Shown here one piece after another: positions 972-62,886 of a stretch of 64,000 nt of DNA. The translations under genes were made by a program, and so were the position numbers. Source of the stretch: Chiloscyllium plagiosum (taxonomy: Eukaryota). The notes below the pieces were generated by a model, which had not been told where the DNA came from, ran no database searches, and saw nothing but the letters and a program-made list of their open reading frames with translations. The stretch is taken from the NCBI RefSeq assembly GCF_004010195.1, contig NC_057747.1, positions 17,419,454 through 17,483,453 on the forward strand, written 5' to 3'. Every line of letters starts with the position of its first letter. Positions within the stretch are counted from its first letter, which is position 1.

Positions 972-1075
972 ATAAAAACATAAAGTGCTGGAGATACTCA
1001 GCAGGTCTGGTAACATCTGTGGAGACAGAAACAGAGTTAATGTTTTGAGTTCAATCTGACCCTTCTTCACAACAG
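972..1075 (-). mobile_element. Penelope-derived mini-element, family C, degenerate hammerhead
   Basis: Reverse complement resembles ...GAAGAAGGGTC...AAAACATTAACTCTGTTTCTGTCTCCACAGATGTTACCAGACCTGCTGAG, shared with the copies at 14741, 53436 and 59219. Confidence 0.6.
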
Positions 1076-1110
1076 TTTCAATCATTATCTTGCTTATAAA
1101 AAATAGAGAC

Positions 1111-1421
1111 GGGGTGGCATGGTTGCTCACTGCTTAGTACTATTGCCTCATAGTGCCAGGGACCCAGGTTCAATTCCAGCCTTGCAAAGCTGTCTGTGTG
1201 GGTTTCCTCCAGGTGCTCTGGTTTCCTCCCACAATCCAAAGATGTGTAGGTTAGGTGAATTGGCCATGCTAAGTTGCCCAAAGTGTTCAGGGATGTGTTC
1301 GTGAGGGGGTAAATGTAGAGTAATAGGAGAGTGGGCTAGGTTTGGATGGGATGCTCTTTGGAGAGTTGGTATGGATTTGTTGGGCTAAAGGGACTGTTTC
1401 CACACTGTAGGGATTCTATGA
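1111..1421 (+). mobile_element. HE1-type tRNA-derived V-SINE
   Basis: tRNA head with B box GGTTCAATTCC, V-domain GGGTTTCCTCCAGGTGCTCTGGTTTCCTCCCACAATCCAAAGATGTG, CR1-like 3' tail. Confidence 0.85.
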
Positions 1422-1799
1422 CATAAATCTTATATACAATCAGAAGACAGATTTACACAAATTTCATTGTGGCCGGATAATAGCACAAAATAATCACTGG
1501 TTTCATATTGTTCTTTTAGTAGCATTAAAGACTCAATATTGATCATAAACTATGAGAATAATGAATGTGAATATCAAACTTCAATATGTTTCAACTACAA
1601 CCCAAGGGAGGCTTTGGAGCTAATTCTTTATTTGGGATATGAGATGGTGATGACAGTGTCTGGGACTTCGCCTGAAAAGTATGTTTCTGTGAGGGCTGTT
1701 GCTTGTGGGACAGCTTTCTCAGTTTTGGCACAAGCCCCCCCCCCCCAATGCTGGTAAGGAGAACTTTGCAGGGTCAATGCGACTGAATGATTTTTAAAA

Positions 1800-2075
1800 C
1801 TCATTTATGGGCTGTGGGTATCTGGCTAGGGCAGCCTATATTTTGCATTTCTAATTGACCAGAGGGCAGCAGCTGACAGCCAACCACATTGCTGTGGGTC
1901 TGGAGTCACATGTAGTTCAGACCATGTAAGGATGGCAGTTGCCTTCCCTAAAGGGCAGTAGTGAACCAGATAGGTTTTTCCTGACAATAGATTCATGGTT
2001 ATCATTAGACTCTTAATTACAAACATTTTATTGAATTCACAATCCATCATTTGCCATGGCAGGATTCAAACCTGG
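1800..2075 (-). mobile_element. tRNA-derived SINE (same family as 17795-18650); an older copy follows at about 2170-2430
   Basis: Reverse complement aligns by eye with 18375-18650 (GAAGG..GCCATCCTTAC..TACATGTGACT.CAGACCCACAG). Confidence 0.65.
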
Positions 2076-2774
2076 AATGAGTGAACCTTTTCCATTGTTA
2101 TTTCTGGTGGCAGGCAGTCTATCCAGTTTAATTCCTTTTGTAAGCTTTTGTGGCAATTTGAGGAAACTAAAGGAGTAGTTTAGGCTATTTCAGAGGAGAG
2201 GTAAGAGTTAAACACATAACATGTCTGCGATCCATTTACGTCAGACCAGATAACAACTTAACATTTCCTTCCTTGAAAGACATTAATGAACCAGATGAAT
2301 GTTTCCAGCAATTCAGAATAGTTACACTATTAGGATCACGGATTTTATTGAAATTTCCTCATTATGTTCTAACTCATTTCCCCTGAGATTCTGCATTGCA
2401 ATCCAATGGCATTACAATAGTACTGTTGCCTCCCCTATATAGCCATAAAGCCATGAGATTTGTAAAGGAAGTAGCTCTTAAGAGGCATCTTAAATGAATA
2501 AAGAGAATTAGAATTAGAATTGGGTTTGTTATCATGTGCACTCAGATTACAAAAGGAGGACAGAGTAAAGTGTACAATTTCATCAACACGTGGCACCATC
2601 TTAGTTTCAAAGAGAGGCAGGACCAAACAGATTTAAGGAGCGGATTCCAGAACCTGGGGCCATTGCATGTGAAAGACTTTGGTACTTTGCTACAGAGTAA
2701 GACAAGGAAGAAAAGTGCATATGGGGTAATCAACAACTTGGAGAAATAAGAGTTCTAAATTGGAGTAAAGCAAA

Positions 2775-4190
2775 TTTTGGTATGAGGAACATACTTTCAA
2801 AAGTTGATTGGGGTAGTCAGTTCACAAGTAAAGAGACAACTGGCAAGTGGGAGGCTTTCAAAAGTGAGATGATGAGAGTTCAGGAACATTATGTTCCTGT
2901 TAGAGTAAAGAGTAAAGCTGATAAGAGGAGGGAACAATGGATGAATACAGATATTGAGGTTCTGGTCAAAGATAAGGAGGCATATGTTAGGTATCGACAA
3001 CTGGGATCAAGTGAATCTCTTGAATAGCAGAAGGAGGGTAGGAGCATTCTTAAAAGGGAAACCAGGAAGCCAAAGAGGAGGTATGAAATAGCCTTGGCAG
3101 ATAAAGTTAAGGATCATTGAAAGAGATTCTTCAAATACATTGAGAGCAAAAGAGCAACTGGGGGAGAATACGGCCTCTTAAAGATCAATGAGTTCATCTC
3201 TGTGTTGGACCACAGGAGGTGGAGGACATGCTAAAAGAATATTTCATGCTCAGTTTTTACTGTGGAGAAAGACATGGAGGCTAGAGGATTCATAGAAATA
3301 AATATTGATCCATTGAAAACAGTACACATCATGGAGGAGAAGGTGCTGGAAGTCTTAAAAAGCATAAAGGTGGATAAATCTGTGGGATCTGATCAAGTGT
3401 ATCCCAGGACATTATGGGAAGTTGGGGAAGAAATTGCGGGGCCCCTAGGAGAGATATGTCTATCATCGATAGCTACAAGTAAGGTACTGGAGGACTGGAG
3501 GGTGGCTGATAGAATGACAGAGCCATAGAGTCATACAGCAAGCAAACAGACCCTTTGGTCCAACCAGTCCATGCCAAGACTATTGAACACATGAGTTGGG
3601 ATGTCATATTGAGGTTGTACAGGAGATTGATGAGACAACTTTTAAAGTTCTGTATACAGTTCTGGTTGCCCTGCTGTAGGAAGGATATTATTAAATTGTA
3701 GAGGGTTCAGAAAAGATTGACCAGGATGGTGCCAGAAATGGAGGTTTGAGTTAAAAGGAGAGGCTGGAGAGACTGGGACTTTTTTTCACTGGAGCATAGG
3801 TGGTTGAGGGGTGATGTTATAAAGGTTTATAAAATCATGAAGGGCATAGATAAGGTGACTAGCAAAAGTCTTTTTCCTCAGGAGTTCAAAACTAGAGGGC
3901 TTTTTTTTAGGGTGAGAGAAATATTCAAAAGTGACCTGAGGCAACTTTTTCACACAGAGGGTGGTTTGTATTTGTAACAAACTGCCAGATGAAGTGATGG
4001 ATGCAGGTACAGTTATAACATTTAAAAGACATTTGGATAGGTACATGAATAGGAACAGTTTAGAGGGATATGGGTCAAACACAGGCAAGTGGGACCAATT
4101 TAGTTTGGGAAACTTGATTGGCATTGATGAATTGGACCAAAGGGTCTGGATTCACGCTGTATGACGACATGACTGTGTGACTCCATGACA
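2775..4190 (+). mobile_element. CR1/HER LINE ORF2 and 3' end, degenerate, internally deleted
   Basis: KVDKSVGSDQVYPRTLWEV, LPDEVMDAGTVITFKRHLDRYM, and a (TATGAC)-like tail. Confidence 0.9.
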
Positions 4191-4915
4191 TTTTACGGAG
4201 TCCCAAAAGAACATGTGGTGAGGTGGTGGTCTTTATAAAAATGATTCCAAACAGTAGGATTTATGAGGCTATACAGGGCAAAGGAAAGATGGGATTTCAG
4301 AGACTGAAGGCAGTGGAACAAAGCCTTGTGGGGGCTGGAGAGGGTGTTGGGATGTGGAATTGTGGTGGTTATAAGGTGGGAAAGGGCATGGAGAAATTCA
4401 GAAGAGAATTAGCCAGAGGGACAGAAAAGTACATTTAAGATAAAATCAATAAGGTCTTCAGCAGACTTACAGTGCTATTTTGCCAAATAGTTATTTTTTA
4501 CAATTGTTCAGTAGACCTTTTCATATTAACTACAATGAGCATGAGTGTGAAAAACAATTCATAACAAATAGATTTAATATATGGGTCCACCTTCTGCTAA
4601 AGTGGATGGAGTTAATCTTAAGGATGCTATTTACAAATTAATCTGCTCCTGTGAGTCTGTTGAAATAAACCCAGATTAGTGGAATGAAAGTCTTTCTGCC
4701 TGCTTCCTGTAAAAGTCTAAAATGAAATGACCTTGGCAGCCTCAGTGTTTCTTATTTATATGAGACTATGGCATAAAGCTACTGATATTAAATTAGTGAC
4801 AATCATTTGGCCAAAAAGTGACTGCAGTGTTGTCACTATGCCTATCAAGCAATTGGGGGGACTGTCGAGAATACTTTTGGATGGATGAATTAGAATGGGT
4901 CAAATAACCTCTCTC

Positions 4916-5662
4916 GTAGAGTCATGGAGTTACACGCCATGAAAACAGACCCTTCGATCCAACCAGTCCATGCCAAGCATAATCCCAAATTTAACTAGTC
5001 TGACCTGCCTGCTCTTAGCCCATATCCCTCCAAACCATTCATATTCATGTATCTATCCAAATAGTCTTTTAAATGTTGTAATTGTACCTACATCCACCAC
5101 TTCCTCAGCAATTTCATTCCATTCTGTGTCTTTTGTAAATGTCTATCCTCTCACCTTTAAACTGTGTCCCCCTGCCTTGAAATCCCCCATCCTAGGGAAA
5201 AGATAACTCTCATTAACTCTATCTGTACCTCTTGTTAGTTTAGAAACTTATATCAGGTCACTCTTAACCTCCTACACTCCAGTGAAAGAAGTCCCAGCAC
5301 TATCCAGCTTTTCTTTATAACTCAAACCTTCCATACTCGACAACACCCTGGTAAATCTCTTCTGAAGCCTCTCCAGCTTAATACTATTCTTCCTATAAGT
5401 GGGCAACCAAAACTGGTCACAGTGTTCCGGAAGAAGCCTCACCAATGTCCTGTAGAACCTTGACATGATGTCCCAGCTCCTATACTCAATGGACTGAGTA
5501 GTAAAGGCATGCATGCCAAACACCTTTTTAATCACCCTATCTATATATGATGCAAACTTCAAAGAATTATGTACCTATACTCCTAGGACCCTCTGTTCTA
5601 TAATACTACCCAAGGCCCTATCATTAATTGTATAAGTTCTATCCTTGTTTGTTGTACCAAAA
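4916..5662 (-). mobile_element. CR1/HER LINE 3' fragment
   Basis: IEYRSWDIMSRFYRTLVR...LERLQKRFTR on the minus strand, plus the CR1 tail. Confidence 0.9.
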
Positions 5663-6660
5663 TAGTTATGTGGGAATCTACAACTTAAAATCAGAGCTAT
5701 GTTCCTTGAAAGTTAGAATTTAAGAACCTGATTTAGGGGAAATAGATTCTGCATAGTCCAGTGCATGTTGGAATTACTTAGTATATTTATTTATGTATCT
5801 TTAGTAAGTTTCATTCATTTATTGGCTTCCACAAGCCATATAAAAAGGTAATGGAATTTCACTTTTCAATATATATAATTTAATTTTTCTACACTTTCCC
5901 ATCAGTACATTGGCTTCTTTGCATATATTAACAGCACATTGATTAAGACCTGAAATGTGTAGCATCAAAACACAGGGCAGCATTTAATTATCCTGACTGT
6001 ATATTAACATTTTGCCACATTTCCTTTACCCTGTCTTCTGTAAAACCACTGCCACTTGCTCTCACTTATAAAATGCAGTTGTAAACATTGTCGAATTAAT
6101 CAGGAATGGCATGACAGTAAGATGGGGCTAATGTTGACTTGTAAAGTTTGTTGTTGTAAGTGTCCTAGTTTTATCTGCACAGTTGGGTGATATAGGAACA
6201 ACAGTGTTCTTGTCACTGACCATTGGCAAGCAGAAATCCGGTGCTCCTGATTCAGTTATGCCTAATTGAATGTGATATTGGGTGCGGGGAGTGAAGCTAC
6301 GATGTATTCTCAGCACAAACAATCTTCACCTTTCATCCACTACAATATGAATATGGATTTCCCCTCACATTTGTAGCCTTGCAAATTGTTCTGATGAGCG
6401 CAAACTTTGACAAAATATGTCTTTTTCTTAATGGTATTATTTACTTAATAGTAAGTCTTTTTTAATTAATGTTCAACGAGCAGAAGTGGAGTTAAGCAAG
6501 TAAGCACAATTAGCCCACATGAAGCTGACGCTGAGGGAGTTACTGAGTATTATTCTGCTAAATATGGGATATTGATGAGCAAGTGGAGATCTCCTCATAG
6601 AACTGCATACAAAAAATAGACAGTTGTTCATAAGATAGTGAGATCACCCAGATATCATGA

Positions 6661-6978: not shown

Positions 6979-6989
6979 ACAAAGTGATG

Positions 6990-7410: not shown

Positions 7411-7438
7411 TTTCTCTTCTTGTGTCCTAAAGGAGTTG

Positions 7439-7628
7439 CTGAAAATGTGTTGCTGGAAAAGCGCAGCAGGTCAGGCAGCATCCAAGGAGCAGGAGAATTG
7501 ACGTTTCGGGCATGAGCCCTTCTTCAGGAATGAGGACTTTCCTGCTCCTTGGATGCTGCCTGACCTGCTGCGTTTTTCCAGCAACACATTTTCAGCTCTG
7601 ATCTCTAGCATCTGCAGTCCTCACTTTC
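7439..7628. mobile_element. Penelope-derived inverted-pair mini-element, family A, hammerhead motif on minus at 7496-7531
   Basis: Inverted arms, 14-bp TSD TCCTAAAGGAGTTG (7425-7438, 7629-7642), motif CTGAAGA-A-GGGC-TCAT-GCCC-GAA-ACGT-C. Confidence 0.8.
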
Positions 7629-8739
7629 TCCTAAAGGAGTTGGTTTTCTATTGGTGTATATTTCCAGAAACCATTTGGACCTCGCCCATTGTACTTTGCC
7701 TGTAATTCATTAGTAGATAATTCTACTTCGTTGTTCCACTGTTGCAGGCATCACAACCAAGCCCAACAATGAAATATGAAGCCCGAATGTGAGTATTTAA
7801 ATCGGAGGTTTGTGGATTATGATCAGGAGGAGGAACATTGGCCAATTGTCCTCTCTACACAAGAATGTTGAAAGATATTGTAATGGGATTGGTTACCTTC
7901 GCACATTTCAGTGCAAAACCTACTGTTGTATTTGGCTAAATACACTAAACTCAATAACCCATTATAAAAGCTTTCTTCCATCTTTAAATACACACTTTAT
8001 TTTCTTCTATGAATTTAAATATTTGCATGTTTCAATTATATTTTTATATGAAAATTCTGTGTAAATTCAAAATGGCTAATAAAATAATTGCAATTTTACA
8101 GGCTAAGAATATTTGAATGACTTTGGATTTATTCTGGATAGTCTTCCACTGGCAGTGAAATTATGATCCAGCTACCTCTTCTCCTCAGGAGATACTGCCA
8201 GGTACCCAATCTGACACTTAAACATTCTGGGATAAAAGTAGCTATTTCTAATGGATGCTCCATGTCATGTGTTGCATTTGATATCATCACTCCTTCCAGT
8301 TTCTTCCTCTCCCTGCCCCCTTTCTCTCTCTTAACCCTCCCTTAATTGGGCACAATATGATACTGTCACCTCTGTGAGACAGCCAGATTTGAAGATATAC
8401 TTTTACTTCAGGAATATCGTAAGTATTTCATCTCCCTGTAAAATCCATCCCAATATTCTGAACCAATTAATTATGATTCTATGCATAATCTATTTTTAGT
8501 TGCATAAATTTAGTTCCATCTACTTTTTTATAAATATGTTTCTTCACATTCTTCCAACTTGACCTAAAGTGGACATTCTTTCATTTCAATCACATTTTTG
8601 TAACCCAGTTTTATCATGGATTAATATGTCATGCTCCCATCTTCATGAATTATGGTAAATATAAATTCAGGCGCCTCGATTATCTCTATGCTGATAAACC
8701 AAGCAGATTGAGCTTTCACCCAACTTAACCACCAGAAGA

Positions 8740-9040
8740 GGTTAAAAATCACACAATACCTGGTTGTAGTCCAACGGTTTATTTGGAAACACTAGTATAC
8801 ACCATTACTACATGAGGAAGAAGCAGTGCTTTGAAAGCTTGTGTTTCCAAATAAACCTGTTGGACTATAACCTGGTGTTGTGTGATTTTTAACTTCCTGA
8901 AGTAGGGCTTATGCCCAAAACGTCGATTCTCCTGCTCCTCGGATGCTGCCTGGCCTGTGCGCTTTTCCAGCACCACACTTTTCAACTCTGATTTTTAACT
9001 TTGTCCACCCCATTCCAACACCGGCAATTCCAAGTCATGA
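8740..9040. mobile_element. Family B Penelope-derived inverted-pair element with a nested family A copy (8896-8988)
   Basis: Inverted arms of AAATAAACCTGTTGGACTATAACCTGGTGTTGTGTGATTTTTAAC. The inner copy is flanked by a 13-bp TSD TGATTTTTAACTT (8883-8895, 8989-9001). Confidence 0.8.
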
Positions 9041-14740: not shown

Positions 14741-14865
14741 CTCTGAAGGGTCATATTAGACTCCGAACGTTAAATCTCTATTTCTCCACAGACACTGCCA
14801 GACCTGCTGAGTTTTGCTAACACGTTCTGTTTCAGATTTCCAACATCCCCAGTATTTTGCTTTAA
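14741..14865 (+). mobile_element. Penelope-derived mini-element, family C, upstream of LRIT2
   Basis: CTGAAGGGTC...CGAACGTTAA...TCTCCACAGACACTGCCAGACCTGCTGAG plus tail; the hammerhead core is damaged. Confidence 0.65.
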
Positions 14866-15210: not shown

Positions 15211-16990
15211 TGATGTGGAGGTGCAGGTGTTGGACTGGGATGGACAAGTTCAAAAGTAACACCAAACCAGGTTATGGTCAATCAAATTTATTTGAAATCA
15301 CAAGCTTTCAGAGAGCTGTTCTTTCATCAGGTGAAGTGAGGAGGAGCACACAGGCACAGAATTTATAATCAGCAAGATCATACAAGTTGTGTGAGTGTCC
15401 ACTGGTTGAATAAGTCTCTGCAGGTGATCAAAAGTGTCCGATTGTGTGAGCAAAATGTCAACAGCTGAATAGCCAGTGAACGGATGACCTATTACCTGAT
15501 TAATTGAGGTAGAGAGATAATTACAAAAAACTTTTAAAAAGGTGGTGCTGGAGACAAACCAAATGGATGGAATAACATGATAGGTATAAGGGTCTAACCA
15601 AAGTAACAAGAAATCCAAAACTGAACAAACTAATTAAGGTAGAGAGATCATAATGAGTTATCAAAGTGATGGTGTCAAAATCAGCTTCCACGGTAAACAT
15701 ATTAAAGAAGCCATCTCCTGCAGACAAGCCCTGCATGTACACAGGATCTGTTCAGATGAAGAGGACACGACAGGCAATAAAAAAAATGTTGACAGATGCC
15801 CCCATAAGAACGGGATACGATGCTCAACTCATCGATCACCAGTTCCAAAATGCCACAGCAAACAACTATAATTATCTCCTCAAAAGACAGACACAGCACT
15901 CGACCGATAGAGTATCCTTCACCATCCAGTACTTCCCTGGAGTGGAGAAACTAAACCGTGTTCTTTGCAGCCTTCAACATGTCACTGATGATGATGAACA
16001 TCTGACCAAGATCATTCCTACATCTCCACTTCTCACCTTCAAACAACCACCAAACCTTAAACAGTTCATCATTCTGCCCAGTTAACTGCCCAGGACAACA
16101 TTGACCACAACATCACACAACCCTGCCATTGCAACGTCTGCATAACATGTCAAATCATCGACATGGATACTACCATCACATGTGGGAACACTCATATAAG
16201 TCAGCTAATGTTGTCTATTTCTTATGTTGCAGGCAAGTATGCCCCGAGGCATAGTATATTGGCAGGACCATGCAGACACAATGACAATGGACAAATGGGC
16301 ACCATGCAACCATCGCCAGACAGGAATCTTCCCTCCCATTTGACATTAATTTTAACACTTCAGTGGTCAAGGGCATTCAGCCTCCTATCTTTGAGCAAGT
16401 GTCCTCCAAGGCAGCCCTTGAAATACACAGAATCGCCAAGCAGAAATTGATAGCTAAGTTCTGTACCCATAAAGACAGCCTCAGCCATGATCTTGGGTTC
16501 ATGTTACACTATATGTGACCGTACCATACTGTTTTGTGCATGTAAACATTTTCTTACCATCCTGTTTTGCACCATTGCCTTGATAAATTGTTATGATCTC
16601 TCTACCTTAATTAGTTTGTACAGTTTTGGATCACTTGTTAGTATGGTTATGACTATGTTATTCCAGTCATTTGGCTTATCTCTAGCATGACCTTTTTTTT
16701 GTAATTGTCTCTCTGCTTCAATTAATAAGATTATAGGTCATGCCTTCACTGGCTATTCAGTTGTTGTCATTTTACTCACACAGTCAGACACTCTTGATCA
16801 TCTATAGAGACTTAATATTCAGCCTGTGGACACTAAACTCACACCATTTCTATGATCTTTTGATCTCTCTGATTATAAATTCTGCGCCTGTGTGCTTCTC
16901 TTCACTTCACCTGATGAAAGAGCAGCACTCAGAAGCTTGTGATTTCTAATAAACCTGTTGGACTATAACCTGGTGTGATGTGACTTCTGA
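15211..16990 (+). mobile_element. 5'-truncated Penelope-like element (Neptune-type) with inverted pseudo-LTR, family B
   Basis: RT thumb remnant HIKEAISCRQALHVHRICS, linker FKQPPNLK and CHCNVCITC, GIY-YIG remnant NVVY...YIG. 15250-15680 is the reverse complement of about 16565-16990; hammerhead motifs at 15299-15333 (-) and 16908-16941 (+). Confidence 0.88.
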
Positions 16991-17435
16991 TCTCAATATA
17001 TCCCGGGAGCACTGGGCTCGGCTATAATCTGAAGTGCATGTTGCCATTGGAATGTCGAAATAACTAGGGCAACATATCTATGTTTAATTTCTAAACCATT
17101 ATTCCTCTGTCAGCTGTTCAATTAGGCTTCCAAACGCATGAAGGACAGTGCCAGATCTCTCCTGATGTTCTCTGACATTTCTCCCTCCTCTTGTGCCGTT
17201 CTTTTGGAAATCCAATCACCAAGCATGAAGAAATAAAACAGGTGCTAGCCACTCTCTCTGCGGTTTGTTCTCCCTCAAGCTGCACTGAGCTAACCTTTCT
17301 GGCTGTTACCACACTGAAACTTTGGGTGGTCCTATGTAGAAGAGCTATTCATATCTCTGGATAATGGAATACTCTTTATAGAGGGGGCGGAGAAAGCATA
17401 AAGCCTCCAGATAATTAGATGAAAGTCAAATAGGA

Positions 17436-18142
17436 GGACTCCTGTGCGGAATGTTACACATTGGTTGTGAAATGAGGTGAATTAAGGGGAGCTAACAGCC
17501 TAATGGTATTATCACTGGACTGTTAATCCAGAGAGTTGAAAAGGGCGGCGCTGGAAAAGCACAGCAGGTCAGCCAACATCTGAGGAGCTGGCAAATCACT
17601 GTTTCAGGCATAAGTGGCTCAGTGGCTCACACTGAGCACCATAGCACCAAGGACCCGGGTTCGATTCCAGTCCCATTGTGTTAGGTGAATTAGCCATGCT
17701 CAATTACCCATTGTGTTTAAGGATGTGTAGGTTAGGTGCATGGGGACTCCTCTGTGGAATGTTACACATTGGTTGTGAAATGAGGTGAATTAAGGGGAGC
17801 TAACACCCTAGTGGTATTATCACTGGACTGTTAATCCAGAGAGTTGAAAAGGGCAGCGCTGGAAAAGCACAGCAGGTCAGCCAGCATTTGAGGAGCTGGC
17901 AAATCACTGTTTCAGGCATAAGTGGCTCAGTGGCTCACACTGAGCACCATAGCACCAAGGACCCGGGTTCGATTCCAGTCTCGGGTAGCTGTCTGTGTAG
18001 AGTTTGCACACTCTCCACATGTCTGCGTGGGTTTCCTCTGGGTGCCCCAGCTGCATCCCACAATCCAAAGATGTTCAGGTTAGGTGAATTAGCCATGCTC
18101 AATTACCCATTGTGTTTAAGGATGTGTAGGTTAGGTGCATGG
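17436..18142 (+). repeat. Local tandem duplication (308-bp deleted copy + 399-bp copy)
   Basis: 17436-17743 repeats 17744-18142 almost exactly, except that 98 bp are replaced by 7 bp. Confidence 0.9.
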
Positions 18143-18650
18143 GTCAGGGGTAAATGTAGAGTAATAGGGTAGGGGAATGGTCTGGGTGGGGTACTCTTTG
18201 GAGGGTCGGTGTGGACTTGTTTGTCCAACTGGCCTGTTTCCACACTGTAGGGATTGTATGATAAGCCCTTCATCAGGATGCTGCTTGACCTGTGCTGTGC
18301 TTTTTCAGCGCCACCCTTTTTGACTCCAACTCTCCAGCATCTCCAGTCCTCACTTTTTCCCTATTAATCCAGAGACTAAGGTAATGCCCTGGGGTCACAT
18401 CCCACCAAGGCATTTGTGGAATTTGAATTCAATACAATTCTGGAGATAGGAGTCTGATGATGACCATTGCCAGTAGTCAGGAAAAAACCATTTGATTCAC
18501 AAATGCCCTTTAATGAACACTCTTCCTTTAGAGAAGGAAAATGCCATCCTTACCTGTTTTGGTGTACATGTGACTTCAGACCCACAGTAATATGATTGAC
18601 TCTTAAATACCCTCAGAGCAATTCAGGATGGGCAATAAATGCTGGGAAAA
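17795..18650 (+). mobile_element. Three nested elements: tRNA-SINE > family A inverted-pair element (17843-18360) > HE1 SINE (17922-18260)
   Basis: TSD CT(G/A)TTAATCCAGAGA at 17828-17842 and 18361-18375; the HE1 copy is flanked by ATAAG. Confidence 0.82.
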
Positions 18651-19399
18651 CCAGGGATATCTGGAATCATACTCCAGAGGATGTCAAACCAAAGCAGCTA
18701 AAAACTGGACTTGAAATGTGAAGTCTGATTTCTCTCCACAGATGCTGCCAGACCTGTTGTTTTTCGCTAGAAATTTCAGTTTTTGTTTATTGTAAAATTA
18801 CTGATTCCTGGAAGTCTTATGCATCATTACAGTGGTGTAAGTTGAAAACAGATTTCTCCAAATTTGAAAGTGTTTTCATTGCAACAATTCAGAAAATGGG
18901 AATGGTCAAGAAATGCAATTAACAACAGTGTCCAGTAGACAAGTGTTTATGAGGAGTTTGAGAAGCACTGAAACACCAAATTCTAACAAGCTCCTGCCTA
19001 AAAGGGGTAAAACCCAGAGTGAATTTTACAGCAATGAATACCAAATAGATTCTCATCAGAGTTACCAAACCTTTCCAAAAGAGGCTTTATGGATGAAATG
19101 GGTATTGCCAAGAGAGACAATCCCCTAATCACCACATTATGCAAGAGCCAAGTGTCAACAGTAGCTTTATTTGTCATTTCTACCATATACAACTAATACA
19201 GTAAGAATGAGATAGCGTTCCTCCAGGACCGAGGGTGCTACATGGACAGCACAAACTACACGATCATACACAGGGCAGCATGAAGTGCTTAAGAAGTCAA
19301 AACATGCAAGACAGCATTCGTTTAAAATTGTGCAACTGTGCAATCAACTATTTTATGGAATAAATTGTGGAATGTTCATTTTCTTATGTCCTCAGCTAC

Positions 19400-20760
19400 A
19401 TATAAACTTCAAAAATAAGAGCAGGACTAGGCCATTCAGGCCTTCAAGTTTTCTCCACCATTCATTGAGTTAAAGAATCATACAGCAAGGAAACAGACCC
19501 TTCAGTCCAACCAGTCCATGTTGACCATAATCCCAAAGGAGAAAGTGAGGACTGCAGATGCTGGAGATCAGAGTTGAGTGTGGGGTGCTAGAAAAGCACA
19601 GCAAGTCAGGCAGCATCTGAGGAGCAGGAGAGATCCACCTAAGTGGAGGGCCCATATCCCTCCAAACATTTCTTAATCATGTGCTTACCCAATGCCTTTT
19701 AAACACTGTAACTGTACCCACATCCACCATTTCCTCTGGAAGTTAATTCCACACACGAACCAACTCTCTAGGCAAAAACAAAAATGTCTTTTTCATTTAT
19801 CTTTCAATATGATCATTGTTGATCATTCAACTCAGTACCATGTTCCTGTTTCTCCTAACACAGTTTGATCCCTTTAGCCCTAAGAACTATACATAACACC
19901 TTGAAATCATTTAGTGGTTTGGCCTCAACCACTTTCTCTAGTAGAAAATTCTACAGACTGACCACTCTATAGGTGAAGATAATTCCCCTCATCTCAGATC
20001 TAAATGGCCTACCTCATATCCTTAGACTGTGACCCCTGGTTCTGGACATCCCATTCATTGCAAACATCTTTCCTGCAGTTACCCTGTCCAGTCCTGTTAG
20101 AATTATATAGGTTTCAATGAGATTTCCCCCTCATTCTTCTAAAATTCCATTGGATACAGTCCTCACTAATCTGGTGCCTTCACATTCTTGATTGTGTACT
20201 TGTATAAAATCTGATCAGAACACATCGAGGTTTTTAGAGCATTGAAAGAAGCCCTTTGGCCCATCATGTCCATGCTGATCATCAAGCATCCATTTATTCT
20301 AATCCCATTTTCCAGAACTTAGTGAGCAGGAAATCTGTTTTTTAACAATGCAAAAACACAAGAATGAAGGAAGTGGTTGGCTTTTTTCATTCACCCTTCC
20401 TCAGAAAACTAAGTTTTCCCACCCAACTCAATCCCACCTACCTTCACAGCCTTGTATGCTGTGTCATTTCAAGTTTCATCTAAATAGTCTTAAATGTCTT
20501 GATGAATCCTGCCTCTACCACCCTTTTAGGCAGTGAATCTCGGGTATCCACAACCCTCTGGGTGAAATGAAAATCCTCAAATCCCCTCTAAATCTCCTGC
20601 TCCGTAATTTAAAATTTTGCTACTCTTGATTGACACCTCTACTAAGGGAAAAAGTTCCTCCTACCTACCCCGACTATGTACCTCAGAAGTTTATACAATC
20701 AGATCCAACGTCAGCCTTTTCTGCTATAAGTAAAATAACCCCAATCTATCTAGTCTCTCT
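19400..20760 (-). mobile_element. Cluster of CR1 3' fragments, including a family A tail fragment at about 19538-19635
   Basis: CR1 tail motifs GAAACAGACCCTTCAGTCCAACCAGTCCATG, CCCCTGGTTCTGGAC and ACCCTCTGGGTGAAA. Confidence 0.7.
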
Positions 20761-20788
20761 TGGTTAGATAGGCTGTGTAGACTAATAG

Positions 20789-20935
20789 ATGCAGAGGTGC
20801 CGAAGTTGGACTGGGGGGGGGGGGGACAAAGTTAAAACTCGCACAAGTTATCTGATGAAGGAGCAGTGCCCTGAAAGCTAGTACTTTCAAATAAACCTGT
20901 TGGTCTATAACCTGGTGTTGTGTGATTTTTAACTT
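20789..20935. mobile_element. Family B mini-element with hammerhead motif at 20849-20883 (+)
   Basis: Short inverted arm with tail, then TAT-CTGATGA-A-GGAGC-AGT-GCCCT-GAA-AGCT-A-GTA and the family B 3' end. Confidence 0.8.
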
Positions 20936-21879
20936 AGATAAAAGATGTTTACCTGCCTGTCATTGTAACCCTTTACAAACAATGAATATACTCCAAACAA
21001 AATTATAACAGAACTTTAAGAGTTTACCTTGACAGTTATGGATCATAAGGAGAATCCCCAGACTATATGAGTTGGTAGGGGAATTGTTTCATGGAATTCA
21101 AGAGTTAGAGTGGCAAAAATGAATAACATGCCTTCACACTTGAAAGCAGGGCTTTCACCTCTAATGATGCAATTTTTCATGCAATATTTTCTGTAAGAAT
21201 CCTGAATGAAATTAGTAAAATCTAATTCCTGATGGTAGACAAAACTCAAAAGTTTAATTTTGCACAGAAGTGGCAGTCTCAAATAATTGAGAGAGCTGCT
21301 GTGAGAAATAGAAATCTCAAGTGCTCTTGCAGTTGATTTTCTCTGAAACAGCAAAGGACAGAAAGAGGATGAGATTCATTATTCTGTGTCTGACCCAGTC
21401 TGGGAATAAACATGAAATATTTGCCTAGAAGTGGCAATTAGTTAATTCTTCCAGTATTCTGACTGCTGGTGTCTTATTTTGATGAGAATCCAAAATTGCA
21501 GGCCAATATGAATTCTGAATCTTTAATATAAAGACATTTTTGCATTTATATAACACTTTATCATGTTTTTAAAAACATGCCACCTGTCTTAATGTACAAG
21601 GAATTGCTTTAAAATTTGCAGTAGCTATTTTCTACAGAAGATCCTACAAGCAGTATTGTATTAGTGAGCAGGCAATCTGTTTTTTAACAATACTAAAACA
21701 CAAGAATGAAGGAAGTGTTTGGCTTTTTTCATTCACCCTTCCTCAGAAAACTAAGTTTTCCCACCCATCTCAATCCCACCTACCTTCAGCCCCACATCCA
21801 CATTACAGCATCCAAATGCCCTGAAGACCGCAGATGATTTTAGATCTAATATCTGGCCCTAACTATAATTTATGCCATA

Positions 21880-43711: not shown

Positions 43712-43835
43712 TGGAGGTGGAGGTGCCTTGGACTGGGGTGGGCAAGATCAAAAGTCACACAACACTGTGTTATAGTTTAACAAGTTTATTTGAAATCACA
43801 AGCCTTCAGAGTGCTGCCCCTTTGTCACTTGAACT
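43712..43835 (-). mobile_element. Family B mini-element (degenerate hammerhead) in RGR intron 2
   Basis: Matches the left arm of the element at 15211: TTGGACTGGGGTGG...AAAAGTCACACAACAC...TTTATTTGAAATCACAAGC. Confidence 0.7.
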
Positions 43836-53216: not shown

Positions 53217-53435
53217 GTGAAATACAACCACTTACAGAACAATCATTGGAACATGAACTGAAGTGCCAACAGAAGCTTTTGACCCAACCTTTATATCAAG
53301 TTGCTTTCACAGTAGAAGCACTTTGTACCTTTCACAAATCAAGGAGTTAGAATGAATATACTGGCAGTTTATAACAACACTTGAACACGCATGCACAGCT
53401 ATTGGCTCCAAAAGGCCGTAACTCCATGTTATTTA

Positions 53436-53629
53436 CATACACAAACAAAAACAGAAATTGCTGGAACATCTCAACCTGTCTGGCAGCATCTGTGGAGACA
53501 AATCAGAATTAATATTTTGGGTCCAGTGACCCTTCTTCAGAACAGATTTCTCTCCACAGAGCACCCAGACCTGCTGAGATTTTGTTTCTGATTTGCAGCA
53601 TCCACAGCTCTTTTGTTTTTATTTTAATC
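53436..53629. mobile_element. Family C inverted-pair mini-element within the probable RGR 3' UTR
   Basis: Inverted arms, 12-bp TSD CCATGTT(A/G)TTTA (53424-53435, 53630-53641), decayed hammerhead on minus at 53508-53543. Confidence 0.75.
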
Positions 53630-53661
53630 CCATGTTGTTTAAGACTGCTCAGTTGGTTGCA

Positions 53662-53667
53662 AATAAA
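53662..53667 (+). terminator. Candidate RGR polyadenylation signal AATAAA
   Basis: First AATAAA I find after the RGR stop, followed by a T/GT-rich tract. Confidence 0.5.
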
Positions 53668-54466
53668 TTACATTCTATATTCTATTTTTTGTAGTCCCTT
53701 TGATATTTGCACTTCAGCTGATCTATAGATGATGAATAGCTATGGAAAATTTGTTATTTGTTGAACTGGAGCAATGCGCAATTAGAAATGCACAGCTTGG
53801 TTTAAAAAGAAGGTGAAGGTTATAACATGAATGGATTCACTCCTTCCTCTATGGAAATGTCTGAATGCAGAATATGACTACATTTTCAAAAATACAGTTG
53901 GTTCTGACATGATGCAATAGTTCTATTCCCAAGCAATCACACGTTATAAGAAAATTGTATAATAGCAGTGCCATTTAAACTGATGGGGCCAGAATTGCGT
54001 TATAGCCAATACAGGTAAGGAAAGTTCGCTTTCTGCAAATAATGGTCTAAATTCTTCAATTGCATTATAGCCAATTCGCGTTGAAGAAACACACATCATA
54101 TCAGAACCGACTGTACATTCTCAGCCATTTGTGAAAATTGGAGAAAGATTGCAAATGAGTCTGAAGATGGAGCTGTTGTTTTGAGAAATTGTTAACAATA
54201 TACGTAAATATTATAGACGTGACATAATGATCAGCCATTGCATTGAAAAAACAATTAGCATGGTGTATTTTTCTTACAGGCTGCAGATACATAATTAGTT
54301 TTTGTGTTAGAGCACTAACTGGATGGCCATATATTTTGACAGTGTTTATCTTTTCAATGTTATACATTTGAACTCAAGGGGGTTTAATTTTGGATGAATT
54401 TAGACATTGATGGAAATGTGTTGCTGGAGAAGCGCAGCAGGTCAGGCAGCATCTAGGGAACAGGAG

Positions 54467-54502
54467 AATCGACGTTTCGGGCATTAGCCCTTCTTCAGGA
54501 AT
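54467..54502 (-). ncRNA. Minimal type I hammerhead ribozyme motif (left arm)
   Basis: ATTC-CTGAAGA-A-GGGC-TAAT-GCCC-GAA-ACGT-C-GATT; all core nucleotides present. Activity not shown. Confidence 0.7.
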
Positions 54503-55145
54503 GAGGAAAGTTTGTCCAGCAGGCTAAGATAAAAGATAGGGAGCAGGGACTTGGGGGAGGGGCGTCGGAAATGTGATAGGTGGAAAAAGGTCAAGGTGAG
54601 GGTGATAGGACAGATTGGGGTGGGGGCGGAGAGGTCGGGAAGAAGATTGCAGGTTAGGGAGGCGGTGCTGAATTTGATGGTTTTGACTGAGACAGGCTGG
54701 GGGGAGGGGAAATGAGGAAACTGGTGAAATCCGAGTTCAACCCTTGTGGTTGGAGGGTTCCTAGACGGAAGATGAGGCGTTCTTCCTCCAACCATCGTTT
54801 CGCTGTGGTCTGACGATGGAGGACTCCTCCATCGTCAGACCACAGCAAAACGACGGTTGGAGGAAGAACGCCTCATCTTCCACCTAGGAACCCTCCAACC
54901 ACAAGGGATGAACTCGGATTTCACCAGTTTCCTCATTTCCCCTCCCCACAGCCTGTCTCAGTCAAATCCATCAAATTCAGCACCGCCTTCCTAACCTGAG
55001 ATCTTCTTCCCGACCTCTCCGCCCCCACCCCAGTCTCACCTATCACCCTCACCTTGACCTCTTTCCACCGATCACATTTCCGACGCCCCTCCCCCAAGTC
55101 CCTCCTCCCTACCTTTTATCTTAGCCTGCTGGACAAACTTTCCTC

Positions 55146-55181
55146 ATTCCTGAAGAAGGGCTTATGCCCGAAACGTCGATT
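55146..55181 (+). ncRNA. Minimal type I hammerhead ribozyme motif (right arm), predicted cleavage after GUC at 55177
   Basis: ATTC-CTGAAGA-A-GGGC-TTAT-GCCC-GAA-ACGT-C-GATT; all core nucleotides present. Activity not shown. Confidence 0.72.
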
Positions 55182-56360
55182 CTCCTGTTCCCTAGATGCT
55201 GCCTGACCTGCTGCGCTTCTCCAGCAACACATTTCCATCTCTGATCTCCAGCATCTGCAGACCTCATTTTCTCTTCATGAATTTAGACATTGACAAGCTC
55301 ACAGAAACCCCACTTCAAAGTGATCTATGTGTTTCAATTCAGAAAAAAAACTGAATGCTTATTTTAATCTCAAAACAATTGGAAGTTTCACTCTAAATTG
55401 TTAACCTTTAACATTCTTTTTAAGTTTAAATGCCTACACATACTAACTGTTCTACCTATGTCTGCATTTGGGCTCAACATTTAACAGTGCACATTGTTAT
55501 AGAGAATAACAAAATCAGTCTGTTTCCATATTCTAGAACTAATGCTAATATATTCTGATTGCTGAGGCTGAAAAAGTGTTATTTGACTGCCAATCTAGTG
55601 GTAAATCATTGTAATCCTTTATCCCTGGCACAATGTCGGACTAATCAGTGTAAGTGGAAAGGGCAAAGCCTTGGGATTTATTTTGCAAAACAACTTTATT
55701 AGCACAATTTATTTTGTTTACCTAAGTTGAAAAAGAGTACTTTAAATGTTTTGTTACTTTACAGTCAGGTTTAGGGGGGAATTAGACTTGCATTAGAAAA
55801 CTCTAGACATGAATATCATTAATAACAACAAAATATTAATTTATAACAGCATTACAATTCTGCAGAGTGCAATTTGTGGAAATTACAATTGTTGTAGAAT
55901 GGACACTATTGAATACTCTCATACCTCTAATTTAAAAAAATCTATTGGTCAGGTTAAAGAGGTTTTAAGAAATGTCTTGGAAAATATGACTTTAACCCAT
56001 TAATTATGTTGTTACTGTTCCTGATCTAGGTGGATGGGGCTGCTAATTCTATAATTCATGAAATTTAGTATGTTTGTCTCATCTGCCTTGTCATTTATTC
56101 AAAAATATCTCAAGGACTTGTTCAACAATGCCTTAACATTTTCTTTGTGTTCCTTTAAAAATAATTCTTTTGTTATCTGTCATGTTCTTTATGCATCTAA
56201 TTAACTATTTGCCTTTTTTCTCTTTCAATCTCAAATTTAACTTTTATTTATTTTTAAATGTATTTCCCTGTAACTCATTCTGCTCCTTTCTCTATCCTCT
56301 ACTTTCATAAATTAAGTTAATGAGTCATTGGCCATGAAATTCACATGACCCCAGATTTAT

Positions 56361-59218: not shown

Positions 59219-59478
59219 TCATGGCAAATAAAAACCGAAAGAACTGCAGATATCGTAAATCAGAAACAGAAACAGAAGTTGCTGGAAAAGCTCAGTAGGT
59301 CTGGCAGCATATCTGTGCAGAAAAATCAGAGTTAGCATTTTGTATCCAGTGACCCTTTCTCAGAATGTCGTGCCTCCGTTCTGAGGAAGGGACACGAGAT
59401 CCGAAATGTTAATTCTGATTTCTCTTTACTGATGCTGCCAGACCTGCTGAGCTTTTCCGGCAATTTCTGTTTCTGTTT
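59219..59478. mobile_element. Family C inverted-pair mini-element; hammerhead motif at 59378-59413 (+) and a decayed mirror copy
   Basis: Inverted arms, TSD TTGGTTA (59212-59218, 59479-59485), GTT-CTGAGGA-A-GGGAC-ACGA-GATCC-GAA-ATGT-T-AAT. Confidence 0.78.
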
Positions 59479-59542
59479 TTGGTTAATTTGACTCATTTTA
59501 AAACATAAATACATTCGGATTGGAAAAAAGAAATCCACAAGG

Positions 59543-62500
59543 TGTGACGATGCTATGGCTTTAGACGATTATTTTGTTACGACTAAAAGGATTGTAGAAG
59601 AGTTACTCCAATGTTTTACTAGATATGGACTACCCACACAGATACAATGAGATCAAAGGTCAAATTTTACATCAAAATTAGTTAAGATGGTTATGGATTG
59701 CTTAGGAATAAAACAGTTCAAATACCCTGCTTACCATAGAAAATCTAGGGAGCATTAGAACAGTGGCATCATACGTTAAAGACCATGTTAAGGGCTTATG
59801 GTCAAAACTATCCAGATTGGGAAAAAGGAATTTCATTTCTACCTTTGGCAACTGGGGATGCACCTAATGAATCTACCAAATTGTGTCCAATTGAACTTGT
59901 ATTTGGGCATGAAGTGAGAGGACCACTGAAATTAATTAAGGAGAAATTGGTGAGTCAGAGTTCAGAGACCACATATTTGGACTATATGGCAAATTTTAGG
60001 GAAAGATTAAATAGAGCAGGTGAGTTGGCTAGATAGTATGTGATGAAATAGAGAGGCAACAAGAGATCAAAATAGTTGCAATTTTGCTTGTGGAGATAAT
60101 GTGTTAGTGTTACTCCCAATGGTAGGTGAACATGTAAAGGTGCCATTTAGTGGGACTTACCAAATTGAAAGGAAATTGAGTGAGATGGATTATTTAATAA
60201 GAATGCCAGATAAAAAAAATCTCACAGAGTGTGTCTTGTGGATATGCTCAAAAGGTATTTTGACAGGGAAGGAAAGCAAAAGGAGAATGTGTTACTTGTT
60301 ACAACACTAAATGAAGCACCAAGTTCAAATGAACTGGACATTCCTCAAATTAAATTGGCAATGAGGAAGTTCTCAAAAATTGGGATAAATTATTGAGTTA
60401 CCTTCTAGAGGAAAATTGAAATGACCTGAAAGTGTTGTTATAATCACATGGGGAAATATGTGGGAATAAGATAGGAATTACTAATCTAATTATGCATGAA
60501 GAAGACATAGGAAATACTGTTCCAATTAAGCAACATGCTATAGACTTAACCCTTTAAAGTTGGCACAGGTTCAAAAAGAGATTGAACACTTGCTCAGAGA
60601 TAATATAATTGAAGTGAGTTGGAGCTCACCTATAGTAATGGTGCCGTAACCAGGTGGTACCCAATGATTATGTGTAGACTATCGCAAAGTCAATGCAGTT
60701 ACAAATTCTGATTCATATCCTATTCCACATTTGGAAGACTGTATTGAGAAGAGGGAACAAGCAACTTACATTTCTAAGTTAAAATTACTCAGAGGACTCT
60801 GGCACATACCTTTATCCAAAAGAGTGAAGGCAATTTCAGTTTTCGTGACACCAAATGGACTCTTTCAGTTTAAAATCATGCCATTTTGTATGAAAAATGT
60901 ACCAGCCACATTTCAAATACTAGCCAATAAAGCCATTCTAGACTATCCAATTGTGTGGTGTACGTCAACAATCTGATGATTTTTAGTCACACATAGAAGG
61001 AACATTTGCAGCATCCATTGGAATTATTCGATCGACTTTGGAAGATGAACTTGATGATAAACCTGGCTAAAAGTGATTTTGCAAAAGCCCAAGTCACGTT
61101 CCTGGGCCATTTTTGGACATGGACAGATGGCTCCATGGGACGTGAAAATTACGTTGTTGAGGAGTTTCCCTTACCATCAATGAAGAGGGCAGTACCACAA
61201 TTCCTGGGATTGAATGGTTTTTATCGGAAGTTCGTACCGAATTTTAGCAGTTTGGTTGCTCCACTCACTGCCTTATTGAGGAAGAGCAGAAAGCTTCAGA
61301 AGGCATTTAACAGCTGAAAGCTGTGTTAAAACATTGCCCCAGTGCTAGCCACATCTAATTACTCAAAGCCGTTCAGAGTGGCTATCGATTTGAGTGGTGT
61401 AAGTGTTGGTGCTGTACACTTGAAGAAAGATGTTAAGAAGATAGAAAGACTTATTAGGTATTTTTCCAGAAAATTGAATAGTCATCAATAGAAATAATCC
61501 ACAATTGAGAAGGCGACCTTGAACTTGGTATTGGCATTACAACATTTCCACATTTATATTGCCAGTACTTTGTCTGAGACAATTGTATATACTGATCAAA
61601 ACCCATTAAAGTTTGCAGAGAAATTTAAGGACATAAATTCCAGACTGTTTAGTTGGGGCTTATTATTGCAGCCATTCAATTTGAAAATTATACATGTGGC
61701 CAGACAAGAGAATGGAATGAAGGAAGACAGAGGGGTTCAGTGGCAGAAAATAATACGGACTGAAATAGACTGTAGTAGTGAATGTTTGCATGCTTAGAGT
61801 CAGTGTAACATATCTGTAGTATGTACTAATAGTGTAAGATGAGGATTTTAAAAAATGAAGCCGTCTTTGTACATTAATGATTTTTTTTGGGGGGATAGGT
61901 GTGACAATGCAGTGGTTTTAAAAGGTTATTTATGTCCTCATTTTTTTTGAAGAGTGGTTGTAAAAGCAGAGTAGCTGAAGTGGCTACTGAAGATTGCTTA
62001 AGTCAATAACTTAGGATGCTTTTCAGTTTTTTTTAACAGTTGTAACAGTGGAAGGTGAGTGGCCAACTCTGACAGACCAGGCTTTCTCATTTTTCTAGCT
62101 TTAGCAGTCAGAAGCTGTTTGGGTCACAGAGGGGTTGGAAGATTTAGGAAAGGATACCTCTCTGCTAATCTCTCTGAAATCTCTCTTGATGCTGTTTCCT
62201 CCTGGATTGGAGAACTGCATGTGAAAATCTGTGTCAGATTTTACCTTTTTGGCAACAGGTGTGTTTATGGGATGTTACGATATTGGAACATTTAATTAAT
62301 AATAGATACAGTATATATTATTTGGTTAACTTGTCACAATAGTTATGTTATTCCAACTTGCTTCTTTATTTTGTTTATATTTTAATTATTATGTTTAAAT
62401 AAATTGTGTTTTGCTTAACATTGAGTCGTTTGACCAGTCATATTATATCTGGATCACGCACTTCACCTTTAAAATAAGAAAAACCTAGGGTCTAGAAAAC

Positions 62501-62760
62501 CTTCTGAAAAAATTGTGAGGGAATCTGGTCTGATCCATAACACTACAGTGGATGAATAAAGTGCATTTTGCTTTAAATCCAGTAATTCGACCAAATCAAA
62601 TTGCATCTAAAATGAAACCCCTTACATTTACATTTAAAATAAGAAAAATTCAGGGTCTAGGCTTTCTTCCAGGGTGTGCTTATGGGATGTTGTTATATTG
62701 GAACAGTTAATTACTAATTGTTACTGAACATCTTGAAGGGGTTTAGTCTGATCCATAATA
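59543..62760 (+). mobile_element. Defective Gmr1-like Gypsy LTR retrotransposon (INT-RT-RNaseH order), 3' LTR 61900-62542
   Basis: Integrase FTRYGLPTQIQ...GALEQWHHTLKTML (59600-60030) precedes RT LCVDYRKVNAVTNSDSYPIP and FLGLNGFYRKFVPNFS, then RNase H YFSRKLN. PPT at 61889-61899, LTR TG...CA, 4-bp TSD AAGG at 59539-59542 and 62761-62764; many stops and frameshifts. Confidence 0.85.
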
Positions 62761-62789
62761 AAGGGAAAGGATCATTTTTGATTAACCTT

Positions 62790-62886
62790 GTTCCTGAAGA
62801 AGGGCTTATGCCTGAAACATCGATTCTCCTGTTCCCTGGATGCTGCCTGACCTGCTGCGCTTTTCCAGCAACACATTTTCAACTCT
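62790..62886 (+). mobile_element. Single family A mini-element with hammerhead motif at 62790-62825
   Basis: CTGAAGA-A-GGGC-TTAT-GCCT-GAA-ACAT-C-GATT; TSD TAACC(T/C)TGTT at 62783-62792 and 62886-62895. Confidence 0.8.

Follow-up and report, generated by a model that had tools for sequence, protein, structure and literature searches.

The short hammerhead-bearing repeats in a 64,000-nucleotide stretch of the Chiloscyllium plagiosum genome (positions 17419454-17483453 of contig NC_057747.1, in a genome of 3.56 Gb; the whole stretch is called the window) are the ends of coding Penelope-like elements (PLEs). The copies end at two 3′ sites and at a 5′ edge marked by an extra G, they form pairs of one long and one short arm, and short and long copies share subfamilies. 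Most of the short repeats probably represent the entire 5′ leader of a capped, uncut mRNA of these elements, copied by run-off, in a model whose promoter, cap, protein dimer geometry, and template jump are inferred. A first-pass annotation of the window had described non-coding, Penelope-derived repeats at about 15 loci in three families and proposed a class resembling short interspersed elements (SINEs) or retrozymes, with extreme 5′ truncation of autonomous elements as the alternative. The Penelope origin, the predicted minimal type I hammerhead, the lack of a tRNA head, the very high copy number, and the mostly short length are all borne out; neither of its two explanations is supported for most of the copies.

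Positions in the repeats are numbered with C3 of the CUGANGA core as +1, which places the predicted cut of family A after +28. The pairing of stems I and II noted in the first-pass annotation is found at the family level. Stem II is GGGC-ttat/taat/tcat-GCCC in family A, GGAGC-agc/agt-GCTCC in B, and GGGTC-actg-GACCC in C; stem I pairs CAC with GTG in B, AGTT with AACT in C, and ATTC with GATT (one U.U mismatch) in A1 or with GAAT in A2. The CUGANGA/GAAA core, helix II, the palindromic 15.2-16.2 pair, the NUH cleavage triplet, and helix I of the minimal type I hammerhead are present in each family, and pairs have changed together between the three independent families at 15.2-16.2 (C-G/G-C), 10.3 (G-C/A-U), 10.4 (C-G/G-C/U-A), and 1.1-2.1 (G-C/A-U). 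In a genome sample made up of 80 stretches of 10 kb each, evenly spaced (778,671 non-N bases, about 779 kb), a descriptor of our own counted 42 intact minimal hammerheads and none in each of five shuffles, which extrapolates to ~190,000 intact motifs genome-wide. Exact sequence patterns occur 48,404 (A), 3,777 (B), and 130 (C) times in the genome, and the reversed patterns used as controls gave 0. The sample holds 150, 67, and 70 arms and 117, 46, and 59 insertions of A, B, and C, respectively, or ~1.0 million insertions by extrapolation, and copies of 260 bp or less make up 89/109 in A, 31/44 in B, and 58/59 in C. ARAGORN found no tRNA in the copies and there was no tRNA-, 7SL-, or 5S-type Rfam match; the copies consist wholly of pseudo-long terminal repeat (pLTR) sequence. 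As a separate observation, family C has a pyrimidine tract and CAG just before the core (e.g. L160:1480-1500, L-numbers being labels of other genomic stretches examined), which resembles a 3′ splice site at the edge of helix I, as described for Drosophila virilis Penelope; in family A, a comparable tract with TAG lies ~26 nt upstream of the core.

The connection with coding elements is seen most completely in L056:3177-6965, a near-full-length family A element in which an inverted 5′ piece and a partial tandem are followed by reverse transcriptase (RT), GIY-YIG endonuclease, 3′ untranslated region (UTR), hammerhead, and tail. Pieces of RT and then GIY-YIG also lie upstream of A arms (L056 and L012) and a C arm (L160), and the upstream flanks of a B arm (L065) and of C arms (L160 and L022) contain GIY-YIG sequence. 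In a set of four pieces, Pfam matched GIY-YIG (E=1.6e-4) and RVT_1 (E=7.3e-4), each scoring beneath the curated cut-off, and gave nothing for two of the four; three short or frameshifted pieces gave no match. A CX4CxxC linker precedes GIY-YIG (CNRRRCKTC in L210, family A; CYGRHCKTC in L065, family B). In PMC8557442, a CX2-5CxxC linker in this place defines the Neptune/Nematis clade. By sequence, the families are endonuclease-bearing (EN+) PLEs with a linker of the Neptune/Nematis type. In full elements, the tail continues into the open reading frame (ORF), whose ATG lies ~37 nt further on. In three family A copies (L209, L210, and L056), a long low-complexity insert rich in Ala, Thr, and Pro separates the N-terminal region of the ORF from RT.

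Short (97) and long (37) A arms fall into the same five subfamilies (chi-square p=0.35), and in a size-matched nearest-neighbor comparison the difference was 0.0009 (interval −0.0045 to 0.0075), so that short copies are no closer to short than to long ones; the comparison covers family A in a 90-nt marker region of low resolution. A separate SINE lineage is therefore not seen, and the source is very probably the autonomous element itself. Non-autonomous masters, either SINE-like or ~200-nt retrozyme-like mini-tandems, mobilized in trans by the Penelope protein, are an improbable source of most short copies; in their favor, short copies vastly outnumber intact ORFs, a 90-nt marker would miss a young master identical to an autonomous pLTR, and retrozymes have been proposed to derive from pLTRs (bioRxiv 10.64898/2026.07.22.740005). 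Moreover, mini-tandems that hold every cis element of a template do exist. A pattern for the tail-ORF junction occurs 124 times in the genome, and in 42 of 68 loci examined the ORF side ends 56-80 nt past the tail; 32 of these 42 then continue into a new unit, mostly beginning at the hammerhead edge, and so contain the hammerhead, the tail, and the first ORF codons. An indel in the reference halts the ungapped walk along the ORF at 108, and 22 loci are accordingly counted as at least 108. The 56-80-nt stop matches the 3′ boundary needed by the anole Penelope protein, ~55-60 nt past its start sites (PMC11167929). In 8 of the 68 selected loci, two intact cores lie 197-364 nt apart. Against such masters, all tandem junctions differ, and hence they formed independently without amplification of any one of them; the 80 random stretches contain one pair of intact tandem units; solo mini-copies do not have the ORF-side binding region; and no short-only lineage appears among the A subfamilies. 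The SINE-like or retrozyme-like class of the first-pass annotation is thus not supported as the main source, given the shared subfamilies, the differing junctions, the single tandem pair, and copy ends away from the cut site. Neither the window copies nor the bulk of the copies show the head-to-tail arrangement of at least two units with complete hammerheads by which retrozymes are recognized.

The 5′ ends indicate where the copies stop. The distribution of 5′ breakpoints, a check set beforehand, is not random: among A arms reaching +12 in the sample, 77/119 end between −9 and +12, at a termination hazard of 0.047/nt compared with 0.0074 upstream, and 34/55 B arms end between −13 and +9 (0.042 versus 0.0047). 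The hazard is therefore raised 6-9-fold at the 5′ edge of stem I in these two families; the family C profile reference begins at −5, which bounds its 5′ ends, and hazards were calculated for A and B. Starts of A copies defined by target site duplications (TSDs) concur, with 10/12 between −6 and +8. Among 51,119 exact A cores genome-wide, the match is lost at −3 in 11,223, at −4 in 10,918, and at −5 in 4,968 (27,109 altogether), and 24,010 continue; of 30 such continuing copies, 26 run beyond −30. The ends thus form a sharp edge plus a long tail, and extreme random 5′ truncation is not supported, given their accumulation at the edge of stem I. This edge falls on the A of an Initiator-like motif, TCATTCC in A (−3), TCCACA in B (−7), and TCAGTTC in C (−3). 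In A and C it coincides with the outermost pair of stem I; in B it lies 4-5 nt outside stem I. An internal, TATA-less promoter has been described for D. virilis Penelope (PMC2377424), and an Initiator-like motif has been reported in a rotifer pLTR (PMC3846280).

The same ends bear on the possibility that copies were made from hammerhead-cleaved or circularized RNA, the ribozyme itself setting the ends of the element. This model has been put forward for PLEs (PMC4209133) and would be favored by the retention of compensatory pairs at the family level and by some arms that start after +29, but starts within 2 nt of the cut site number 5/150 in A and 1/67 in B, tandem junctions are imprecise and lie at the 5′ edge rather than at the cut site, and the anole protein uses uncleaved RNA (PMC11167929). 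No accumulation of genomic ends or of reads was seen at the predicted NUH cleavage site. Cleavage as the source of ends is largely refuted for the bulk of the copies and very improbable overall. An apparent cluster of 5′ ends at +25/26 was traced to a deletion in the reference copy and disappeared once profile coordinates were used, so that an accumulation at the cleavage site was rejected.

The base that precedes the edge suggests what kind of end it is. Bases were counted by hand for the first 100 among the matches listed in each family, giving 59 G, 28 A, and 13 T before the edge A in family A (background G 26%), with G at 14/100 and 29/100 at the neighboring positions (Fisher p 3e-11 and 3e-5). 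Family B has 59 G, 13 A, and 28 T, compared with 21, 20, and 59 in the control (G:A p=0.001), and family C has 38 G, 25 A, and 37 T (p=0.008); when copies with point changes are removed to leave true breaks, G accounts for 16/20 in B and 13/23 in C. In family A, G precedes −3 in every class of partner sequence (inverted 12/19, tandem 7/9, TSD 5/6, and unresolved 7/16), and junctions whose partner is resolved have a single untemplated G in 6, an A in 2, and a T in 0. In four public sequencing runs, the top sites of 5′-side loose ends include window position 55146; three of the runs, X18, X15, and X2 (each with its own organism code), have G as the adjoining consensus base. Aligned reads show no accumulation of starts or ends; one read alignment was confounded by a reference carrying a variant at −3. 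A 5′ G is frequent in full-length L1 copies and has been interpreted as a copy of the cap (PMC2831318). Splicing or trans-splicing was considered as a source of the G and rejected, since inspection by eye showed no AG in front of the edge A in these two cases, families A and B, and a mixture of A and T at the position preceding the G.

It is also conceivable, though unlikely, that the origin is autonomous and the edge is a structural barrier, at which RT stalls on leaving the hammerhead fold or to which a 5′-3′ exonuclease trims longer RNAs, as far as the protein-bound hammerhead, with RT then adding a C. RT can add untemplated bases at any run-off end (PMC2718515). In A and C, the edge is exactly the outer pair of stem I, the ends spread from −9 to +12, and the 3′ landing at +56 to +80 past the tail suggests the footprint of a ribonucleoprotein with trimmed ends. 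The edge of family B, however, is outside stem I and yet on an Initiator-like A, and the G excess drops at adjacent positions. A hairpin should halt RT at its 3′ foot and not past it, which also counts against a barrier.

At the other end, the arms stop at two sites about 35 nt apart, ~+85 to +97 and ~+121 to +133. In 61 of 65 inverted pairs exactly one arm is long and bears the tail (A 33/35, B 19/19, and C 9/11; p=4e-14). TSDs flank 23/35 A inverted pairs (13-22 bp, mode 15), compared with 0 in shifted controls, and 12/68 A solo copies. The two arms have the same loop variant in 27/31 pairs (38% expected), and the short arm extends >10 nt further 5′ than the long arm in 22/61. The arms are therefore separate cDNAs, mostly from one RNA or source. 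Self-priming (snap-back) on one cDNA or antisense template, combined with ordinary random truncation as the cause of short length, has been proposed in its first part for rotifer Penelope (PMC3846280), and it could draw on the 27/61 pairs that are palindromes to within 10 nt as well as on the shared loop variants. It is nonetheless highly improbable: in 22/61 pairs the short arm contains sequence missing from the long arm, and the tail is always on the long arm, so that neither arm copies the other and snap-back copying of the long arm is excluded, and the termination hazard is not flat. In the anole element, RT starts internally at two sites, both strands are extended, and uncleaved RNA is the dominant template; the minimal 3′ boundary of the anole protein is at +172 of the ORF (PMC11167929). 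Separately, 44 reads of run X20 depart at window position 55227 into a subfamily 3′ end and then an A run; they may reflect a transcript, either polyadenylated or primed internally, that ends at the proximal start site, perhaps from a single locus.

Run-off from a capped leader could bring these features together as follows. An internal promoter would start transcription at the A of the Initiator-like motif, which would place the hammerhead directly behind the cap. The protein would bind the leader and the first ORF codons and nick the two target strands 13-17 bp apart, and cDNA would be primed from each nick, one at the proximal start (+85 to +97) and one at the distal start (+121 to +126), in most cases with a single RNA serving both. 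Since internal priming depends on sequence from the ORF side, the only complete priming site of a monomeric mRNA would be in its 5′ pLTR, and on such an mRNA both RTs would reach the cap after ~90-130 nt, copying it as an extra G. Joining of the two cDNA ends, often minus a few bases, would give solo or palindromic mini-copies; on reaching the cap, RT may sometimes jump to a new position, 56-80 nt beyond the distal start, leaving ~200-nt mini-tandems, and long copies may arise from read-through or tandem RNAs. Short G-marked copies, palindromes, jump tandems, and long copies only from read-through RNA are what this model predicts, and they are seen.

It should be recognized that several observations count against run-off from a cap. 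Since untemplated bases can be added at any run-off, the G is better evidence of an RNA end than of a cap. For some of the edge Gs, the partner (the target or the inverted arm) supplies a template; G is likewise frequent at the apparent A starts +1 (7/8) and 0 (8/14), and it occurs in small numbers at −5 to −7, partly as older subfamily sequence. The signal in family C is weak, the edge position in B was picked after two examples and the motif had been seen, and the consensus base at 55146 in run X20 is T. A starts at −2 (11,223, G-poor) slightly outnumber those at −3 (10,918) and ends spread to +12, so that the model has to allow for a few bases being lost when the ends are joined, and ~47% of exact A cores continue upstream, which means that many templates were read-through RNAs. 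By eye, no match to the downstream promoter element was seen at +28 to +33. A poly(A) single-cell run, from a library of another organism code and unsuited to the question, had reads on both strands and no accumulation of read starts. Finally, no intact full-length ORF was recovered, every copy found being broken.

A broader interpretation, offered tentatively as less probable than the run-off origin of the copies, is that the hammerhead of EN+ Penelope is a cap-proximal element overlapping the Initiator, that capped, uncut RNA is the productive template, and that the default product is a copy of the ~100-nt leader. The million or so copies would then amount to a fossil equivalent of a cap analysis of gene expression (CAGE) library, in which the start sites of Penelope transcription and the two points where RT begins could be located with single-base precision. 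Jumps from cap to leader would yield ~200-nt tandems with two hammerheads, and retrozymes would originate in such tandems; the ribozyme would cleave only tandem read-through RNA, either taking off its cap or resolving it. The formation of pLTRs and the role of the hammerhead in PLEs have been called open (PMC8557442 and PMC11167929). Should the G-marked edge prove to be the cap, initiation within the RNA would explain both the tiny copies and the excess, by orders of magnitude, of solo pLTRs and minimal hammerheads over full elements; a full copy would need a tandem or a template jump, and templates in vivo would be uncleaved. Exact predictions that are cheap to examine follow, namely the base at which transcription starts and two start sites, one per strand.

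Copies in the window were located by self-comparison and profile search, which gave 25 hits grouped into 19 entries (Table 1). All 15 loci of the first-pass annotation carry a copy of one of the three families, within ~10-50 nt of where they had been placed, and three further copies were found at 16565-16993 (B), 17532-17614 (A), and 18276-18358 (A). Six of the loci are inverted pairs with their 3′ ends pointing outward. The conservation of CTGANGA and GAAA described there is true of the families and not of the window, where 3/25 hits pass the intact core descriptor (54498−, 55150+, and 7527−, the last with a broken stem I) and the arm at 19539-19631, which starts at +32, has no hammerhead. 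Copies with their own TSDs had likewise been reported, and these pass the test at 4/19 entries (14, 13, 12, and 17 bp); a wider search was positive at 0/13 others. The description as non-coding fails for the palindrome at 54409-55274, each arm of which has C-terminal GIY-YIG codons (57 per arm), 3′ UTR, and an intact minimal hammerhead; in the one at 55146-55181 there is an extra A between 9 and 10.1, and a palindromic ACGU replaces helix III. The copies at 15211-15680 and 16565-16993 are 430-470-bp 3′-UTR copies. The family A copy nested at 8883-9001 is younger than the B arm that contains it, and it sits at +84, the proximal start site of B itself. A 237-bp local duplication (17436-17672 and 17744-17980, 97% identity) includes a degenerate A arm together with the SINE-like repeat to which it is joined. 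The window contains no array by Tandem Repeats Finder, and no hammerhead family of Rfam matched it; Rfam hits to MIR860 and mir-9449, far under the gathering scores, are the palindromes at 8740-8895 and 54775-54874. Palindromic Penelope insertions could yield false microRNA calls or long double-stranded RNA hairpins in introns, and such repeats should not be annotated as SINEs, miniature inverted-repeat transposable elements, or microRNA hairpins.

Table 1. Penelope-derived copies in the window and features of the long family A palindrome
Feature	Coordinates	Strand	Remarks
Family C solo arm	971..1073	−	−2..+97; degenerate core; TSD search negative
Family A inverted pair (7438-7630)	7425..7642, including 14-bp TSD copies		Left arm −9..+90 (short start), right arm +22..+124 with tail
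Family B inverted pair	8739..9039		Right arm split at +84 by nested family A copy; tail shifted to 8989-9039
Family A solo copy (8896-8988)	8883..9001	+	Start ~−2/0; nested in B; 13-bp TSD
Family C solo arm	14745..14859	+	+6..+125; damaged core
Family B long copy	15211..15680	−	~350 nt of 3′ UTR, hammerhead, tail
Family B long copy	16565..16993	+	Short start site; absent from first-pass list
Degenerate family A arm	17532..17614	−	+12..+93; one of two copies in local duplication
Degenerate family A arm	17840..17922	−	+12..+93; joined to SINE-like repeat
Family A arm from +45, with tail	18265..18358	+	Preceded by short inverted stub; absent from first-pass list
Family C arm	18704..18788	+	+14..+98; core lost
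Family A arm	19539..19631	−	+32..+124; without hammerhead; inside LINE-like 3′ repeat
Family B inverted pair	20788..20936		Tail arm +67..+119, short arm −2..+85
Family B solo arm with tail	43714..43827	−	+2..+119; damaged core
Family C inverted pair (53441-53621)	53424..53641		12-bp TSD, one mismatch
Family A long palindrome (54409-55274)	54394..55293		Arms 95.5% identical; 17-bp TSD; tail on right arm only
57 codons, which we take from their motif to be the Penelope GIY-YIG endonuclease C terminus	54824..54994	+	No Pfam hit for the piece alone
Initiator-like TCATTCC	55144..55150	+	A at 55146 is predicted transcription start and outer base of hammerhead stem I
Minimal type I hammerhead	55146..55181	+	C3 at 55150; predicted cut after 55177; descriptor and PMC4209133
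Tail between two putative RT start sites (~+89 and ~+125)	55238..55275	+	Profiles and PMC11167929
Family C inverted pair	59229..59484		Tail arm −1..+133, short arm −2..+104
Family A solo copy	62785..62888	+	Short start site

The remainder of the window holds minus-strand exons at 10309-14092 and 26649-27788 that encode LRR, Ig, and FN3 domains (Pfam), with two separate Ig/FN3 exons. This suggests two neighboring genes, which we presume to be LRIT-like, with the Penelope repeats in their introns or between them. A SINE-like family of ~300 bp is present at 1109-1421, 6659-6983, 26186-26490, 34166-34495, 50197-50496, and 56356-56669, and 3′ fragments resembling long interspersed elements (LINEs) at 3346-4191, 4914-5663, 38175-39050, 46559-47339, and other places. 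The ~300-bp family resembles shark HE1, and other repeats of the window HE1/HER1.

Abundant short copies with these properties are a known kind of element, and what is likely added here is a record of a capped start and an uncut template. Minimal hammerheads have been described in pLTRs and as abundant single motifs, the latter read as truncated PLEs, with cleavage and circles proposed (PMC4209133), and the inverted pLTR and one-sided tail of PLEs have also been published (PMC8557442 and PMC3846280). Cap-marked run-off copies of PLEs, or a reading of their ends as cap and transcription start, were not found in the literature searched, most subscription journals and Repbase being outside the search. 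The present families share with EN+ PLEs of the Neptune/Nematis type (PMC8557442 and PMC3846280) a single ORF with RT and C-terminal GIY-YIG, the CX4CxxC linker, a hammerhead in the pLTR, an adjoining inverted copy, a 30-40-bp tail at one end only, partial tandems, and TSDs, but differ in that most insertions are 90-260 bp long, with ~1 million by extrapolation, and in that the 5′ ends cluster at one G-marked position rather than being spread truncations. As in the minimal hammerheads of metazoan PLEs (PMC4209133), there is an extra base between 9 and 10.1, a G10.1-C11.1 pair, a palindromic 15.2-16.2 pair, and a short helix I, and most motifs are single with some pairs on opposite strands; the extrapolated ~190,000 intact motifs, counted with our own descriptor, compare with ~4,000 in coelacanth and ~9,000 in Xenopus.

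The closest functional parallel is PAc, the Poseidon element of Anolis carolinensis (PMC11167929), in which two RT start sites likewise bound the tail, the distal one ~120-125 nt behind the core, sequence is needed ~55-60 nt further, both target strands are extended, and hammerhead cleavage is dispensable. In contrast, the ORF of PAc begins inside stem II and not ~37 nt after the tail, and PAc in vitro shows no strand difference, whereas here one proximal and one distal site are strictly used per insertion; the available portion of the PAc report maps no transcription start site and describes no run-off copies. Non-LTR retrozymes (bioRxiv 10.64898/2026.07.22.740005) are also pLTR-derived and non-coding with a type I hammerhead, and a few of the ~200-nt mini-tandems found here fit their two-unit definition, but the bulk of the copies are solo or inverted, and the junctions are off the cleavage site and not shared between loci. 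The extra G recalls that of L1 (as cited in PMC2831318), which is found at the first transcribed base after RT has reached the 5′ end of the RNA. However, L1 primes at the 3′ end of its RNA, so that the G marks long copies, whereas in the present elements priming in the leader would make the G-marked copies the shortest.

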